Source of the DNA: an uncultured virus (IMG/VR IMGVR_UViG_2061766007_000205)
Taxonomy: Duplodnaviria > Heunggongvirae > Uroviricota > Caudoviricetes
IMG/VR virus record: IMGVR_UViG_2061766007_000205
DNA: 64,000 bases
Reading direction: 5' to 3' (one strand)
Of this stretch, positions 3,069 through 63,737 are shown in pieces. A program made the position numbers and the translations under genes. The notes under the pieces are model-generated. The model was not told where the DNA came from, ran no database searches, and saw only the letters and a list, made by a program, of their open reading frames with translations. Within the stretch, counting starts at the first letter, position 1, and every line of letters starts with the position of its first letter.

Positions 3069-3490
3069 TGTACGAAGAATTGAAGGAACTTAACGAGATA
3101 ATCAGACGTAAGCAGGAGAGGATAGACGAATTACGGGCGGCGGCGGTATCTTTGAGTGTGCCGTTGGATCAGCGTGTTCAAAATTCGTCCGAGGACAGAC
3201 TTGCGAACCTCATGTGCAAGATCATCATTGCTGAAAACGAACTTGACGGCCTTATTGATGATTTTGCTGATAAGAAGATGAAAGCAAAGACGGAAATCTT
3301 TACATTACCCATTGAGGATTGGCAGGACATAATTTATATGCACTATATTGAGTTTAAGAGCATGGATGAGGTAGCACAAATCCTATCGAAGAAGAAAAAA
3401 CGTCATATATCGAAAGATGCGGTGTATATGAAGAACAACCGGGCGATAAAATATCTGAAAAAAACGATATTGTCAGAAAACAGAGCGTAA
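3068..3490 (+). CDS. RinA/ArpU-like late transcriptional activator (sigma70 region-4-like HTH)
   Basis: Coiled N-terminus then IIYMHYIEFKSMDEVAQIL...AVYMKNNRAI; lies just upstream of a promoter-like region and the portal gene. Confidence 0.7.
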   Translation: MYEELKELNEIIRRKQERIDELRAAAVSLSVPLDQRVQNSSEDRLANLMCKIIIAENELDGLIDDFADKKMKAKTEIFTLPIEDWQDIIYMHYIEFKSMDEVAQILSKKKKRHISKDAVYMKNNRAIKYLKKTILSENRA

Positions 3491-3526
3491 ATGTCAGAAA
3501 ATTATACGATATTGTTGAAATTATAC

Positions 3527-3599
3527 TTGACGTTAGTTGAATTGTTTGATATATAGTAAAATTGTAGAAGTATCAAGGGCGGGTTATCCGTCCTTTTTT
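3527..3599 (+). promoter_or_regulatory. Putative late promoter motif TTGACGTTAGTTGAATT followed by a hairpin with U-tract
   Basis: Identical 17-mer at 3527, 33817 and 39607, each upstream of a late gene and followed by a GC hairpin plus T-run. Confidence 0.6.
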
Positions 3600-33902: not shown

Positions 33903-34478
33903 ATGATTATCCACGGAGATAATATTATGATTTTGGCGAATATGGACTTGTTAAATGTCACCTTTGCTTATGTAATACAAGCGATAGCGGTGGTTATAAT
34001 TCTATGGGAAGCCGGAAAAAAGATCATGGAGATCAAGGAGAAGTCTGACTTGGATCACGATAGAAAGCAAAGGTGGGATAAAGCCGCCGACATTGTTGAA
34101 AAAAAGGAAAAGGTCTGGGATGATGCCGTGCTTATCTCAAACAAGGAAAGGCAGGAGATAACCGACACATTTAATCACAGACTCGGACAGCAGGATACCA
34201 AAATAGACCGAACATTAGAGTTGGTTGTGGAATTAACAAAGGCTATGAANNNNNNNNNNTGATGCGGTACTTATCTCAAACAAGGAAAGGCAGGAGATAA
34301 CCGATACATTTAATAACAGACTCGGACAGCAGGATAAGAAAATAGACCGAACATTAGAGTTGGTTGTGGAATTAACAAAGGCTATGAATATCTTGCTGAA
34401 ATGCGAAGCTGAAAAAGGTGAGGATGAAGAAATAAAAAATGCTTATACTTCATTTAACAATTTTGTAGTAAACCACAT
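33903..34478 (+). CDS. Single-TM coiled-coil protein (two variant fragments)
   Basis: Hydrophobic N-terminus; duplicated segment across a 10-N gap. Confidence 0.5.
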
Positions 34479-56606: not shown

Positions 56607-57593
56607 CTATATCAGATTAAGGGCGGTACGTTTTTCATCATTGGTAATTTTGGTATATACCCTTGATGTAACATCACCGCCCTTATGTCCGACAATGGCT
56701 TTTATTATCCTGTCATCCACTTTTGCGGTGACTAAAAGGCTTATAGTCGTGTATCTTGTGCAGTGTAGATCACGATGTTCAAAGCCGTTTTCTTTACGCC
56801 AACGCTTGTATTTATAATACAGTACGCTATATTCACCTAAATACGGCATAGGTAGAAGTTTTTTAGCCTTATCTGATAACGGAACTTCTCTAATTCCGGC
56901 AGGAGTTTTCGCTTTTCCGATATGAATAACTTTGTCTTTGTCAATGCTTTCGGGTTTCATACCACAAAATTCACCCGCTCTCATCCCGGTATAGATCAGG
57001 AATAATAGTATATGCGACATTTCATCATCTATTTTCCATAATCTCGTTATTTCATCATCCGTAAATCTGTCGCGTTCATTTTTATTGACCGCCACATTGC
57101 TTGAAAGGTCAATATAATTGAGTATCGCGACACGTTCAGGTTGGACAATATCATATCTTATCGAGTAGTCGTATAAGTGTTTAAGAACAATCTTGACACG
57201 TTTTTTGACGACAGTAGAACTCTTAAGACTGTCAAAGAATAATTGCAATTCCTTCCGGCTTAATGTAGCAATCGGTTTATCATATAACGGTTTTAGTTTT
57301 TTCCAATGGCTTTTCAGATCAGCAACGCTTTTAGGAGATTGCTGCTCTATATATCCGATGATGAATTTCTCGTAAATGGATTGTACGGTTTCTTTATCAA
57401 GGGAATAAGGAGATTTGTTATATTCCATTAGCGCACTCAACGCATCAGCTTTCGTTCGATAATATCCGATGTACTTGTATATAGGATATCCGCGCTCGTC
57501 AAAACCATCAGTTTTACGAGCAACCCACGGATTTCTGCGCTTGCCGGATAACTTATACACCGAGCCCATGCCGTTGCCTAAACGAGAACTCAT
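56607..57593 (-). CDS. int: Tyrosine integrase
   Basis: TGMRAGE, KTPAG, LHCTRYT, IVGH, VYT catalytic motifs; N-terminal GMGSVYKL arm-binding domain. Confidence 0.93.
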   Translation of the reverse strand: MSSRLGNGMGSVYKLSGKRRNPWVARKTDGFDERGYPIYKYIGYYRTKADALSALMEYNKSPYSLDKETVQSIYEKFIIGYIEQQSPKSVADLKSHWKKLKPLYDKPIATLSRKELQLFFDSLKSSTVVKKRVKIVLKHLYDYSIRYDIVQPERVAILNYIDLSSNVAVNKNERDRFTDDEITRLWKIDDEMSHILLFLIYTGMRAGEFCGMKPESIDKDKVIHIGKAKTPAGIREVPLSDKAKKLLPMPYLGEYSVLYYKYKRWRKENGFEHRDLHCTRYTTISLLVTAKVDDRIIKAIVGHKGGDVTSRVYTKITNDEKRTALNLI

Positions 57594-57994
57594 ACTAGAC
57601 CACCTTTGATGAGTTTGAAGATACAAGTCCCCCCCCTTAACACATTATAAGCGGCTTTCCTCGTACTATCATCAACCTTTCTATACATCTTGATTATTTC
57701 CCTTTCTTCGTCCGATAATTCCTCAAAAGAATAATTCTTATAGTATTCCCGAATTGAACGCGCCTTGTCCGTATCTGTCGCTTGCCATTCTTCGACAAGA
57801 TCAGCCTTACTGATATTAAAATATGATGCCATTATCTCAATCTTATCTATTCGTGGGTATATCTTGGCATTTACCCAATCTGAAAAGGTGTTCTGCTTAA
57901 AACCGCAAGCCTTACATACGTCAGTGGCAGAAACGTGATTGACGTTCATATAATATTGAATATTCTTTGCGATTATCTTTTTGTTTTCAACCAT
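57590..57994 (-). CDS. CI-like Xre-family repressor
   Basis: DVCKACGFKQNTFSDW...YPRIDKIEIMASYFNI; co-oriented with integrase. Confidence 0.85.
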   Translation of the reverse strand: MVENKKIIAKNIQYYMNVNHVSATDVCKACGFKQNTFSDWVNAKIYPRIDKIEIMASYFNISKADLVEEWQATDTDKARSIREYYKNYSFEELSDEEREIIKMYRKVDDSTRKAAYNVLRGGTCIFKLIKGGLV

Positions 57995-58019
57995 AACCAC
58001 AACCCCCTTGCTTATCATC

Positions 58020-58125
58020 ATTATCGGACAAAACGAAAAATATTTCAAGATTTATAAAAAAATGTCTTGACATTATCGGTTAAACCGATTATATTAACAT
58101 ACAGATGGTGTTCGGTTAAACCGAT
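58020..58125. promoter_or_regulatory. Lysis-lysogeny switch: divergent promoters with palindromic operators
   Basis: TTGACA(58067)-17-TATATT rightward; TTGAAA-17-GATAAT leftward; ATCGGTTAAACCGAT at 58075, variants at 58111, 58023 and 58640. Confidence 0.8.
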
Positions 58126-58226: not shown

Positions 58227-58499
58227 ATGGTTTTTAGATACAATAAGTTGAGAGGACGCATAGTTGAAAAGTTTACGACACTTTCACGGTTTGCAAGTGC
58301 ATTGTCAACTTATAAAGGGAAAACAGTAGTAGTTCAGGTGGTGAGTGCAAAACTTACAGGAGCAGTTCGATTTACCATTGATGATGTGGCAGAATGGTGT
58401 GCTGTACTTGAAATCCCGGTTGAAGAAATTGGAATTTATTTTTTTGACTATGAACTTTCAAAAGACGAAAGCGAAAGAATTAAGGAGATCACGGCATGA
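58227..58499 (+). CDS. Cro-like DUF739-type HTH protein (other genotype)
   Basis: FRYNKLRGRIVEKF...EIPVEEIGIYFF. Confidence 0.7.
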   Translation: MVFRYNKLRGRIVEKFTTLSRFASALSTYKGKTVVVQVVSAKLTGAVRFTIDDVAEWCAVLEIPVEEIGIYFFDYELSKDESERIKEITA

Positions 58500-58686
58500 A
58501 CGAATTACAGATTTTCAATAATGAAGAGTTTGGACAGATCAGGACGATTGAGATTGATGGCAAACCGTATTTTGCGGCAAGTGATGTTGCGTCAGCATTA
58601 GGGTANNNNNNNNNNGACATAAATTTTTTACCCCAAAATATCGGTAAAACCGATGTTGAAGGTGAAAAAATAAAGGGGGTGACAGC

Positions 58687-59421
58687 ATGAATGAATTACA
58701 GATTTTTAACAATGCAGAGTTTGGACAGATCAGGACGATTGAGATAGATGGCAAACCGTATTTTGCGGCAAGTGATGTTGCGTCAGCATTAGGGTATAGC
58801 AATCCCCGCAAAGCAATAATAGATCATTGCAAGGGAGTAACGAAACGTGACACCCCTACGAATAGCGGTTTACAGAGCATTAACTTTATTCCTGAAGGGG
58901 ATATTTACCGTTTGATAGTTAAGTCACAGTTACCGAGCGCGGAGAGGTTTGAAAGATGGGTGTTTGATGAAGTTCTTCCAGAGATCAGAAGAACGGGCGG
59001 TTATCAGATGCCGCAAACATATTCAGAAGCGTTAAGGGCATTAGCGGATAAAGCAGAAGAAGCTGAAAGACTTGCCCTTGAAAATGCAGAAATGAAACCT
59101 AAAGCGGAATTTGCAGATGCAATCATAGCTTCAAACACAACGATTCTTGTTGGCGATTTTGCGAAAATCCTCAAACAAAACGGAATAGACACAGGGCAGA
59201 ACCGTTTGTTTAAGTGGTTTGTTGATAACCATTACCTGTTTAAGCGTAACGGTCAGTATGTACCTACACAACGGGCAATGGATTTAGAAGTGTTCGAGGT
59301 TGATTCAAAGCCTGTTCAAATAGGCGATGAAACACAGATAAAACATACAGTACGGGTAACACCCAAAGGGCAGAAATACTTTATAGATAAGTTTTTAAGA
59401 GAAAAGGAGATCGCGGGATGA
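58687..59421 (+). CDS. Antirepressor (BRO-N plus KilA-C/ANT)
   Basis: MNELQIFNN.EFGQIR, FERWVFDEVLP, GQNRLFKW, VTPKGQ. Confidence 0.9.
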   Translation: MNELQIFNNAEFGQIRTIEIDGKPYFAASDVASALGYSNPRKAIIDHCKGVTKRDTPTNSGLQSINFIPEGDIYRLIVKSQLPSAERFERWVFDEVLPEIRRTGGYQMPQTYSEALRALADKAEEAERLALENAEMKPKAEFADAIIASNTTILVGDFAKILKQNGIDTGQNRLFKWFVDNHYLFKRNGQYVPTQRAMDLEVFEVDSKPVQIGDETQIKHTVRVTPKGQKYFIDKFLREKEIAG

Positions 59422-60680: not shown

Positions 60681-60988
60681 AGTGTCCGAAATGCCGGATA
60701 GATCAAACGGAAGTTTACGGCGGTCAAGCTATAAAGCATACATACATGAGGTACAGAAGATGCCTTGCGTGTGGCTACAAGTTCAAAACGATAGAAAGGA
60801 TAGACCTAGACGACATGGTGAGCAAATGTGTATGTGCGGTATGCAAGGAAATGCTATATCCCGATGACGAATATTACGAGATTGACGACAGGATCATGTG
60901 CGAGAACTGCGCGGATGAATGGTTAAGTTCTCAAAAGAATTGGGTGACTGAAGATATGGCATACGGAGACAGATTTGACGATGTTTAG
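60677..60988 (+). CDS. Double zinc-finger protein (NrdR-like ribbon at N-terminus)
   Basis: MKCPKC...RYRRCLACGYKFKTIE; CAVC...CENC. Confidence 0.65.
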   Translation: MKCPKCRIDQTEVYGGQAIKHTYMRYRRCLACGYKFKTIERIDLDDMVSKCVCAVCKEMLYPDDEYYEIDDRIMCENCADEWLSSQKNWVTEDMAYGDRFDDV

Positions 60989-61490
60989 ACAATTTCCGGG
61001 GGCAGGAACTATAACCACTTGCCTTAACTGCACAGAAAGACATCCTGCTTGTCACGATACTTGTGAGAGGTACATCACCGAGAAGAAAGAACGTGATGCA
61101 AAGATAGCGGAAATCCGNNNNNNNNNNCTACGAAATTGACGACAGAATCATGTGCGAGAACTGCGCGGATGAATGGTTAAGTTGTCAAAAGAATTGGGTG
61201 ACTGAAGATATGGCATACGGAGACAGATTTGACGNNNNNNNNNNTCGGCACTTGATGCGGCTTACGATCGGTGGAAAACAACACCACCAGAGCCGGAAGA
61301 GAGCAAATACAAGTGTATTGAGTGTGAGTGTGATCTTTACCCCGGTGATGATGCCTATGAATTAGATGGGTATGTCTATTGCGAAGATCACGCTAAAGAG
61401 TGGTTTGAGAGCCACAAATATACGATACCTGACGAGTAATCGTTTGGCATACAACCTTCTGAAAAGTCTGTGTTATCGGACTAATACGGG

Positions 61491-61896
61491 CAAGAACATA
61501 AGATTAAAGAATATCGTATTTCAGCACATAACAGAAGATAACATCATTAAGGACATAGCATCGGCATTAAGCCGAATAAGAATACGCTAAAGCAGAGAAA
61601 AAAGCACGAATATATAGCGTAATTAAGAATAGCACAGGAAATGAAAAAACACTTAATGTCGGTGCTATGCCCTTAAAGGGAGTTTATTTGAAAAAAGTAA
61701 ATCAAACGACACCAAAACATACTAAAGAACAAAACAATTTAATTTAAGGGCATAGTGCTGATATTAAAGCCCAAGACAGTACACGGCAATACATTCATAT
61801 AAAGAATAAGCCGCTTTAATGTCAGCCTTATGCCGTTAACAGGCAGAAAGTACAAAACAAAATAACGTATTAAAGATCAATTCAGTACAAAAAAAG
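61491..61896 (+). ncRNA. Array of five 5-nt-periodic (ANA-NN) tracts separated by four inverted-repeat arms; candidate guide-RNA array
   Basis: A at every fifth position over 8-16 consecutive pentamers per tract; arms 61547-61571/61652-61676 and 61744-61770/61813-61839 pair with G-U wobble. Confidence 0.8.
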
Positions 61897-61911: not shown

Positions 61912-62358
61912 ATGGAATACGAAATCAAGTGGGCGGTCAAAGGACTACATAAAGGCGATGCACAGAAATGTTACAACGAGTGTCAGACCTTGAATGAAGT
62001 CACACCGCAGAGCGTTCTTGAAAAAGCACGAAATAAAAAGACGGAACTTCACAAATGTTTTGAATGGGATGATTCAGTAGCATCTGAAAAGTACCGCCTT
62101 ATACAAGCAAGACAGATTATACAACATTTCGTGATAATTCACAACGAAGGTGAAGAAACCGAGCAAAAGATACGCTCATATCAGGTCACAACAGAAGCAA
62201 CGAAGTATGAAAAGACCGAACTGTTTTTACAGAAGCCGGATGAATATGCCGCACTTCTGGAACGTGCAAAGGCGGAACTTGAAGCCTTTAAGAACAGATA
62301 TAGGACTTTGACAGAACTTGAAAGCATTTTTGCAGAAATCGACTTATTGCTCACATAA
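61912..62358 (+). CDS. Conserved partner protein of the RAMP gene, function unknown
   Basis: GGGGGTG SD; LHKCFEWDDSVASEKYRLIQAR; embedded between the two arrays; second allele at 63926. Confidence 0.75.
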   Translation: MEYEIKWAVKGLHKGDAQKCYNECQTLNEVTPQSVLEKARNKKTELHKCFEWDDSVASEKYRLIQARQIIQHFVIIHNEGEETEQKIRSYQVTTEATKYEKTELFLQKPDEYAALLERAKAELEAFKNRYRTLTELESIFAEIDLLLT

Positions 62359-62364
62359 GAATAA

Positions 62365-62559
62365 GCCTTGATGGGTGGATTGTTGGCTATTTGCCAAAGT
62401 AAAGGAAACTTCAATAAACAAAACCAAAGATAATCATAGCAAAGGAAACAATAGGACATTAAAAAACACTTTACATCAGATAGTCAGCAATGCACCTATC
62501 AAGGCGAGCAGATTAAACATTAGAGAATAAGAACAAAATGCAGAACACTTTAGCAAACA
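62365..62559 (+). ncRNA. Second array: 29-bp stem enclosing 16 ANA-NN pentamers, followed by 11 more
   Basis: 62365-62393 pairs with 62477-62505 (four G-U pairs, one mismatch); 16/16 loop pentamers have A at position 3. Confidence 0.8.
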
Positions 62560-62581
62560 ATCAGCAAAGGAGAACAAAAAC

Positions 62582-63265
62582 ATGGCAAAAAAGACAGAAA
62601 CAATCGTATTGGAGCAGATAAGAAAAGGTAGTTTGATCGTAACAATCGAAGGTATGACAGACCTTCTGTTAAAGGCAATGCCCCGGTCAACAGAGTTAGA
62701 GCAGATATTTAAGCAGTCACATCCGAAGGGAACAAAGATTCCTGCAAAGTTCACACAGCCGTATTGCTTGTGGGAAAAACTGATAACTTCTATTCATTGG
62801 CAGAATCCTATCACGTTACATGACGATGATTGGTCGCTTTATACCGAAGATGAATGGAAGGACTACATGAAGAACAACAAGCCTTGCATCTTGGGTAAAG
62901 CATTTAAGGATTCATTTAAGGAAACATTTGTTTCGTGCGGATTCAAGGAAACAACGGGCAAGGCAGGAACAGACTTTAACAGGACGGTATCAATATCCGC
63001 ATTGAACCCTGTAACATTTGTTGAAGCATCTTATGAACAGACGTTGCCGGAAACAAGCGGTTTGAATAGAACAAAAGTGTTGACGGAAACTAACAGATTC
63101 AGCGGTTGGAAGTGTGATTTTAAGATCAGTTATCTTGAATCCGCTTTCCCGAAAGAAACACTTATGGAAATCATTTCTTATGCCGGAGAGTTTATCGGTA
63201 TCGGCGCAAGACGTGGCGAAGGTTATGGAAGATATTGCATAACCAACATGAAAACAGCGGAATAA
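62582..63265 (+). CDS. Stand-alone RAMP-superfamily (Cas7-like) protein
   Basis: N-terminal strand LIVTIEGMTDLLL, CILGKAFKDSF helix motif, C-terminal Gly-rich loop GIGARRGEGYGRY. Confidence 0.75.
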   Translation: MAKKTETIVLEQIRKGSLIVTIEGMTDLLLKAMPRSTELEQIFKQSHPKGTKIPAKFTQPYCLWEKLITSIHWQNPITLHDDDWSLYTEDEWKDYMKNNKPCILGKAFKDSFKETFVSCGFKETTGKAGTDFNRTVSISALNPVTFVEASYEQTLPETSGLNRTKVLTETNRFSGWKCDFKISYLESAFPKETLMEIISYAGEFIGIGARRGEGYGRYCITNMKTAE

Positions 63266-63315: not shown

Positions 63316-63575
63316 ATGGCAAATGAATTAACGGTTAAGGAAAAAGGTATTGCGGAGTACCTTGCAAGTCCGGCGGTCAAAGAGAATATCATCAATGTTT
63401 TAGGCGAGAAACACGCGGATGCTTTCATATCTGATTTAGTGGCTTGCGTTCAAAACAATACGGAATTAGCGAAATGCTCAAACAAGTCTATTTTTTCAGC
63501 GGCATTGTTAAGTAGGTCGATCAACTTACCACTTACACCGCAGTTATCTTATTGCTATCTCGTTCCATTTAACAA
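63316..63575 (+). CDS. recT: RecT-family single-strand annealing protein, 5' fragment
   Basis: LAKCSNKSIFSAAL...LPLTPQLSYCYLVPF. Confidence 0.75.
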
Positions 63576-63737
63576 NNNNNNNNNNAAGGTACATCACCGA
63601 GAAGAAAGAACGTGATGCAAAGGTAGCGGAAATCCGCAAGAACAGGAGACTATCTCTCGAACTGTACCATCACAAGATAGAAAAGATGCGGCAGGAGGAT
63701 AAAAAGCACAAATACAAATGAAAGGAGGAAAGCACAC

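Follow-up and report, generated by a model that had tools for sequence, protein, structure and literature searches.

Genes and guide tracts at the locus

The window studied here is the whole stretch of 64,000 nucleotides. Towards its downstream end, A-rich tracts built from five-base units are interspersed with long inverted repeats, and these elements share the + strand with a 148-aa open reading frame, a gene for a 227-aa protein and recT. The names vrRNA, vipr and vap given to these features are those of the VIPR systems with which they are compared below.

61547..61571, + strand: 5' arm of hairpin 1, which closes tract A; 25 nt, 88% complementary, with 22 Watson-Crick pairs, 2 G.U and 1 A.C
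61574..61653, + strand: candidate vrRNA tract A; 16 A-N-A-N-N pentamers, of which the first 14 (61574-61643) form a putative guide for YILADNRMAMDAGW of ParB_N/N6_N4 methyltransferases
61652..61676, + strand: 3' arm of hairpin 1, supported by the inverted repeat and the pair counts; doubles as the 5' arm of alternative hairpin 2
61653-61677 / 61743-61767, + strand: arms of alternative hairpin 2; 21 Watson-Crick pairs, 4 G.U
61694..61743, + strand: candidate vrRNA tract B2; 10 pentamers, NN series GT TC CG CC AC CT GA AA AT AT
61744..61839, + strand: hairpin 3; arms 61744-61770 / 61813-61839, 42-nt loop with about 7 pentamers
61912..62358, + strand: 148-aa accessory gene (phrog_15946, PHROG match E 2.4e-18), a candidate vap, between the hairpin groups
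62365..62505, + strand: hairpin C; arms 62365-62393 / 62477-62505, 83-nt loop, 24 Watson-Crick pairs, 4 G.U
62386..62475, + strand: candidate vrRNA tract C; 18 pentamers, whose register enters the 5' arm of hairpin C by 8 nt
62582..63265, + strand: vipr, encoding a predicted 227-aa Cas7-like RAMP protein with the G-loop GIGARRGEGYGRY
63316..63615, + strand: recT (Pfam RecT), interrupted by an N run at 63576-63585

Hairpin 1 has 25 bp, and tract A forms its 80-nt loop. Compared with shuffled sequences, RNA folding gives z = -7.4 for the hairpin 1 region and z = -7.35 for the hairpin C region. Three consecutive hairpins in 61547-61839 have arms in common, the 3' arm of one serving as the 5' arm of the next, and their pairings are therefore mutually exclusive. 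In the minimum-energy fold of this region, hairpins 1 and 3 are formed and tract B2 is a linker.

A-rich stretches with a five-base phase also occur outside the stems, at 61496-61546, 61847-61890 and 62510-62570, and may be decayed guides or leader sequence. When these pentamer-like stretches and the loop of hairpin 3 (61771-61812) were examined with a sliding target scan, none rose above background. A consensus promoter scan of the locus likewise gave nothing above shuffles, an Rfam search had no matches, a tRNA search found none, and the locus region has no blastn match among GenBank phages.

Tract A carries a gapped copy of a methyltransferase motif

The pentamers of tract A have A at position 1 in 12 of 16 units and at position 3 in 14 of 16. 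The earlier note had read the last two bases of each unit (NN) as the series TA AT CT GC GA AA CG AT GC AT GA GC GG TG AA CT, and re-reading the 16 pentamers yields exactly this series. Position 2 is also variable, a point missing from the earlier note.

The same note had proposed that these dinucleotides spell, with every third target base left out, a motif conserved in ParB-methyltransferases of Firmicutes phages, and had suggested a search with the gapped pattern against shuffled controls. The pattern built from the first 14 dinucleotides, TA.AT.CT.GC.GA.AA.CG.AT.GC.AT.GA.GC.GG.TG, has 28 fixed bases. In a scan of viral contigs it has at least 115 matching stretches. The control with the dinucleotides in reversed order has no matches in the viral contigs, and the best score among ten local shuffles is 20/28. 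All 115 of the matches listed keep the reading frame and translate as AYILADNRMAMDAGWD, part of a protein that combines ParB_N with an N6/N4 DNA methyltransferase. Their DNA comes in 73 versions, which vary at the third base of codons; the proposal that the skipped base is the third base of the codon is confirmed. The last two pentamers (AA, CT) are without a match; the target motif continues D-E-E.

In one locus (L001) the gene that carries the target encodes a 432-aa protein. It matches Pfam N6_N4_Mtase at 92 bits and ParB_N at a borderline 26.2 bits (cut-off 26.3), and the proposed identity of the motif thus stands. In GenBank, the target gene has its nearest relatives in phages that infect Clostridium innocuum, Ruminococcus and Terrisporobacter, in support of the note's attribution to Firmicutes phages. 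The note had also seen no such gene in the window, and the pattern indeed has no match there with up to three mismatches. Neither the pattern nor a homologue of the target gene was found in the resident phage record (56,450 bp, 89% complete).

Three other readings of tract A were dropped. Pentamer position 2 is excluded as the wobble base, since it would give the wrong codon at 5 of 14 places. If the units were five-base codons ending in A, stops would arise at the Y and W positions. A reading of the tract as the template of a DGR was also rejected.

Sister guides of the same locus

Tract C decodes to IPVGLIHP[D/E]SAGHG[F/L]NLQ. Its target lies in frame in the gene for an SNF2-related helicase (Pfam SNF2-rel_dom, DEAD and Helicase_C). 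The rival phages that carry this gene are those matched by tract A, and it is upstream of their methyltransferase gene by about 2.3 kb. Within the 115 methyltransferase loci listed, tract C has 32 matches at a score of at least 28/40, all in frame. With at most 3 mismatches in 36 bases, matches are present in 8 of 26 whole target-phage records and in 0 of 24 VIPR-bearing records, and controls give 0. A scan for perfect matches to the exact 13-pentamer pattern had none; a single guide dinucleotide is mismatched, GA at 62429-62430 where the target has GC, and the target was found by mismatch-tolerant scans.

Nine pentamers of tract B2 have one exact match, which is in frame and sense, and the tenth pentamer fits as well. 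The match falls on the C-terminal motif VSRPTLDKII of a resolvase-like gene, whose Resolvase domain scores 22.4 bits, slightly below cut-off, on a partial open reading frame. Tract B2 is thus probably aimed at a resolvase-like gene, an assignment that is tentative because it depends on a single match. In their own record the best scores of the three tracts are 18/28 for A, 15/20 (75%) for B2 and 22/36 for C, so that A and C reach at most 64%.

The adjacent protein and the relation to published VIPR systems

VIPR, a DNA silencer that resembles CRISPR, was first reported in 2026 (bioRxiv 10.64898/2026.04.26.720920). Vipr is presented there as a phage-encoded ancestral RAMP that occurs in seven types with accessory vap genes. 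Published vrRNAs consist of 9-16 GGY/NN pentamers and follow a 1-nt skip rule in which the skips fall on wobble positions; the Vipr complex is described as binding double-stranded DNA and repressing transcription, and its targets are rival mobile elements, on both strands (10.64898/2026.04.26.720920). Cryo-EM structures show one protomer per repeat, with GGY buried, NN exposed and an R-loop triplex (10.64898/2026.04.26.720927). Codon periodicity is reported to prevent escape (10.64898/2026.10.15.759431).

The vipr gene of the window starts 930 bp downstream of tract A. Its product has 144 homologues, none of which has a Pfam domain. An AF2/AlphaFold model (pLDDT 89.7) finds Csm3, Cmr4 and type VII Cas7 as top Foldseek matches, with E values from 1.8e-7 and 122 chains at E <= 0.001; the 227-aa protein is therefore predicted to be a small Cas7-like RAMP. 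An hhalign comparison aligns the family to the Vipr of Escherichia phage SUSP1 (93.3%, E 2.6e-7, 23% identity) over 137 columns that include the G-loop and span only the C-terminal two thirds of the 227-aa protein. The SUSP1 protein used (KT454805.2) is the product of a 195-aa gene flanked by GGY-NN tracts, and its residue numbering fits the cryo-EM paper. A tblastn search of GenBank phages with the Vipr of the window had no match, and a search of genome contigs with the family alignment produced two fragment matches of 20-29 residues, which were not taken as homologues.

In SUSP1, D177, W178 and the thumb residue R138 are said to read the two guanines of GGY. At the 23% identity of the hhalign alignment, the corresponding residues here are A209 for D177, R210 for W178 and T170 for R138, and R179 is kept as R211. 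Judged from this alignment, the replacement of the guanine-reading residues fits a changed code for the fixed bases.

The 148-aa accessory protein belongs to a family with 50 sources, comprising the window and 49 of 50 relatives' loci clustered, and its gene is always upstream of the array. Its AF2 model has a pLDDT of 79; a fold search against the PDB gave no match at E <= 0.001, and comparison with the 146-aa product of a neighbour gene of SUSP1 revealed no similarity. RecT is encoded downstream of vipr in 36 loci.

The combination of a hairpin-loop guide tract with an adjacent RAMP-fold gene that aligns to SUSP1 Vipr identifies the locus as a VIPR system. We consider it highly probable that tract A is the variable region of a VIPR vrRNA in a temperate phage from ruminant-gut metagenomes. 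The gapped, wobble-skipping logic of the earlier note is correct, yet it had already been published as VIPR, with its 1-nt skip rule (bioRxiv 10.64898/2026.04.26.720920). Systems of this kind have been known since 2026, and the present example is a variant clade of them.

A clade of loci with A-H-A pentamers

A scan of viral contigs with the Vipr family alignment recovers 51 loci. A-N-A-N-N tracts are on the vipr strand in all 51 of them, and on the other strand in just one. Each locus has up to 11 tract calls, which are mostly upstream of vipr, with no more than 3 downstream. The clade contains 289 distinct hairpins, 212 with A-rich loops. Their stems have a median length of 29 bp and their loops a median of 64 nt, and the sequences of the arms are individual to each hairpin. 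No conserved 3' pseudoknot tail was seen behind the tracts of the clade.

The loops of the 212 A-rich hairpins hold 2,649 pentamers. Position 1 is A in 78% and position 3 is A in 90%, whereas positions 4-5 are near-even. Position 2 is C in 45%, T in 29% and A in 21%, which corresponds to H. The fixed trinucleotide A-H-A is present in 1,883 of the 2,649 pentamers and GGY in 2. Pentamer genes of the vrRNA type, with three constrained and two hypervariable positions, thus adjoin vipr throughout, and the canonical GGY motif is lacking. The published papers allow 'a related consensus', so the lack of GGY leaves membership in VIPR intact and marks the clade as a variant.

The stems also indicate which strand folds. 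On the + strand, the 212 A-rich-loop hairpins have 814 G.U pairs versus 207 A.C pairs, counted with a stem finder that gave both kinds of pair equal scores. An excess of G.U under equal scoring means that the folded molecule is + strand RNA.

Targets, skip rule and strand preference

The clade's guides were matched in 12-pentamer windows, with a threshold of 21/24 or better, using 149 distinct guides against 3.69 Mb of phage DNA with both strands counted. Matches were obtained for 26 of 149 real guides and for 0 of 149 shuffled ones. On 1.73 Mb of target-type phage DNA, at the same threshold, a skip of 1 nt gives matches for 24 of 149 guides, and skips of 0, 2 and 3 nt give 0 of 149 each. A 3-nt skip had appeared to match 147 of 149 guides in another database because that database contained the guides' own DNA; these self-matches were rejected, and they vanish (0/149) when target-type phages only are searched.

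Of the 26 matching guides, 25 have coding-strand matches in which the skipped base is codon position 3, and the remaining one has a match without a clear open reading frame. None of the 26 matches within its own locus. Targets in other phages include a family A DNA polymerase (several motifs, for example ADFSAIEARVIAW), an SNF2-like helicase (two motifs), the ParB-methyltransferase and RecT. Taken together, the matches fall on roughly a dozen different sites, and the guides of the clade are therefore not independent.

The RecT targets belong to related VIPR-bearing phages. In relatives, guides located between vipr and recT (L138-L165, approximately 3220-3550) match the RecT of other relatives at KQGYFIAYGG, NSHGDVFVQE and MKGAYLGLDFYSK, and leave their own locus unmatched.

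Strand can also be judged from base composition at codon positions, which requires no database. By this measure 118 of 149 guides look sense. Calibration classes 83% of real sense stretches and 17% of antisense stretches in this way, which implies that about 94% of the 149 guides are sense. As judged by sequence, the guides of the clade appear to be almost all coding-strand sense. The earlier note had argued that the guide of tract A has mRNA sense and that its partner is the template strand of the DNA. The G.U excess, which marks the + strand as the RNA, and the coding-strand sequence of the guide agree with this argument; an RNA that carries coding-strand sequence would be able to pair only with the template DNA strand.

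Alternative roles for the pentamer tracts

Satellites encode solo vrRNAs that redirect a rival's VIPR (10.64898/2026.10.15.759431, in the part consulted), and the RNA of the window might in the same way be a decoy that loads on another phage's Vipr and misdirects it. Such hijacking is very unlikely here. A cognate vipr is present 930 bp downstream, vipr and tracts are together in 51 of 51 loci, and the targets look like essential genes for replication and modification in other phages and are not host-genome repeats.

A guide that targets RNA, as in type III CRISPR systems, would have the Csm3-like protein bind and cut the mRNA of the rival. The best structural matches of the protein, Csm3 and Cmr4, are indeed the backbone subunits that cut RNA in type III complexes. 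However, the RNA is the + strand (814 G.U against 207 A.C) and the targeted guides are coding-strand (25 of 26, with agreement from the composition test), so that pairing with mRNA is impossible. The window also has no CRISPR repeat array and no other cas genes, the locus holds one RAMP gene, Rfam models give 0 matches, and the published Vipr binds double-stranded DNA. We regard RNA targeting as extremely improbable.

TRAP binds RNA through triplet repeats with two-base spacers, and a tract in an operon leader-like position could resemble such a ring-protein wrapping site or an attenuator, with the fit to coding motifs being incidental; this protein-binding role without a guide function is in effect refuted by the target statistics and has a negligible chance of being correct, since at least 115 contigs agree at 28 of 28 bases and none matches the control, a second and a third tract match other genes, and 26 of 149 guides have matches against 0 of 149 shuffled.

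Natural variation and genomic setting

Public metagenome runs of bovine and sheep gut contain DNA of the locus, and none of the runs listed for it is an RNA run. In contigs from four runs, the tracts are exchanged as cassettes and the stems and genes are constant. Loose ends of the cassettes lie at 61575, 61648, 61677 and 61743, and one variant has 76 other bases in place of 61682-61742. One strain variant retains tract A, with changes confined to pentamer positions 1 and 2. This variant also has an A>C change at 62430, by which the single mismatched dinucleotide of tract C turns from GA into GC, the target's Ala codon. Its remaining changes in tracts A and C are at non-NN positions.

On the minus strand, 56607-58048 carries an integrase gene (339 aa) and a repressor-like gene, opposite an early operon with Ant (58687-59421). 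These genes are the lysogeny module of a temperate phage that carries the VIPR locus.

Other features of the window concern its assembly and repeats. Near-duplicate gene pieces split by 10-base N runs are found at 60860-60990 / 61128-61234, where they represent the end of a zinc-ribbon gene, and at 58496-58605 / 58687-58800, where they represent the start of the antirepressor gene. The window has 43 N runs in total, and the near-duplicates look like strain-variant scaffolding or masking, not biology. A tandem repeat of 139 bp (2.0 copies, 87% matches) is located at 34123-34405.

A proposed mechanism

By analogy with published type II systems, VIPR silencing at this locus would begin with transcription of the + strand. 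Copies of the adjacent 227-aa Vipr would array along the RNA, one per pentamer, each hiding the fixed A-H-A and leaving the two variable bases exposed. The exposed dinucleotides would then pair with double-stranded DNA, skipping every third target base, and the complex would stay on the target gene and stop its expression. With the third codon position skipped, a single guide could cover the ParB-methyltransferase genes of many rival phages despite their synonymous differences. Sister guides of the locus would address the SNF2-like helicase of the same rival phages and, probably, a resolvase-like gene.

Two observations sit uneasily with this scheme. G-to-A changes in GGY abolish SUSP1 silencing (legend of fig. 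S12, 10.64898/2026.04.26.720920), so the code must differ in the A-H-A clade. Closing stems with a median of 29 bp are difficult to reconcile with 12-18 protomers in a straight filament, unless the stem is cleaved or melts. A filament of this size should not fit a closed loop, and the stems would then have to be processing sites or to open. Perhaps RNase III processes the RNA at the long stems, or the stems act as a lock to be opened when Vipr loads.

These features may together define an undescribed VIPR subtype, in which a re-tooled G-loop reads an A-H-A/NN code, long stems of varied sequence close the guide loops, and coding-strand guides are preferred almost absolutely. We offer this subtype tentatively and judge it somewhat short of probable. 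If it is real, the preference for one strand would suggest a strand-specific step that is missing from published type II; RNA polymerase might be blocked in a polar manner, for instance, or the complex might escape titration by mRNA of the target.

Comparison with known systems

Type II VIPR, represented by SUSP1 and a Pseudomonas fulva prophage, consists of Vipr, vap1 and vrRNAs. Both it and the present clade have a phage-borne small RAMP, and hhalign supports homology of the two. Shared features include pentamer guides of 9-16 units or more, three fixed and two variable bases per unit, a wobble-based 1-nt skip, targets in rival mobile elements with no self-targets, a small accessory gene, and guides on either side of vipr. 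The fixed bases are A-H-A here and GGY there, and the accessory protein here is unrelated in sequence. Each tract of the clade has its own long stem (median 29 bp), whereas the published type II description has a conserved 3' pseudoknot tail. Guides here are apparently coding-strand only, unlike published targets, which the same description places on both strands. The clade also differs in being found in phages of gut anaerobes.

Units other than GGY/NN have been described. NNNGG, YNNNG and NNNNG are given in the Methods of 10.64898/2026.04.26.720920, and GAC/NN, CAC/NN, WGT/NN and TGH/NN in 10.64898/2026.10.21.760802. The clade resembles these systems, as they are described there, in its five-base period, in the adjoining Vipr-like fold and in a fixed trinucleotide other than GGY. 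An A-N-A or A-H-A unit is named neither in the consulted text of 10.64898/2026.04.26.720920 nor in that of 10.64898/2026.10.21.760802; figs S17 and S10A may show one. Within the portions of the published text consulted, the A-H-A trinucleotide, the long closing stems that differ from one hairpin to the next and the coding-strand bias of the clade are not named, and these may be new.

The predicted Vipr shares a Cas7-like RAMP fold (Foldseek) with Csm3, Cmr4 and Cas7 of class 1 CRISPR systems. Like the backbone subunits of class 1 complexes, it would have an RRM core, a glycine-rich loop and a thumb, and one subunit would bind per fixed step of the guide, with bases flipped out at regular intervals. 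The step here is 5 nt with 2 pairing bases, in contrast to 6 nt with 5 in class 1. CRISPR repeats, Cas5, Cas6, Cas10 and adaptation genes are lacking here, and the guides are hard-wired instead of being acquired as spacers.

Implications for phage biology

Since the kind of system is already in print, the main value of the locus is confirmation and extension. From the sequence comparisons made here, the gapped, wobble-blind guide code would extend to a very different fixed trinucleotide. Matching changes in the G-loop would provide a natural second 'alphabet' with which to study the reading of repeats by Vipr and to build guide and protein combinations free of cross-talk. Two differences from published type II can be tested, namely the closure of guides by stems and the bias that is apparently coding-strand only. 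Natural targets in phages of gut anaerobes are the ParB-methyltransferase, the SNF2-like helicase, the family A DNA polymerase and RecT, each addressed at its most conserved motifs, and the locus clearly illustrates how phages fight other phages in the rumen and gut.
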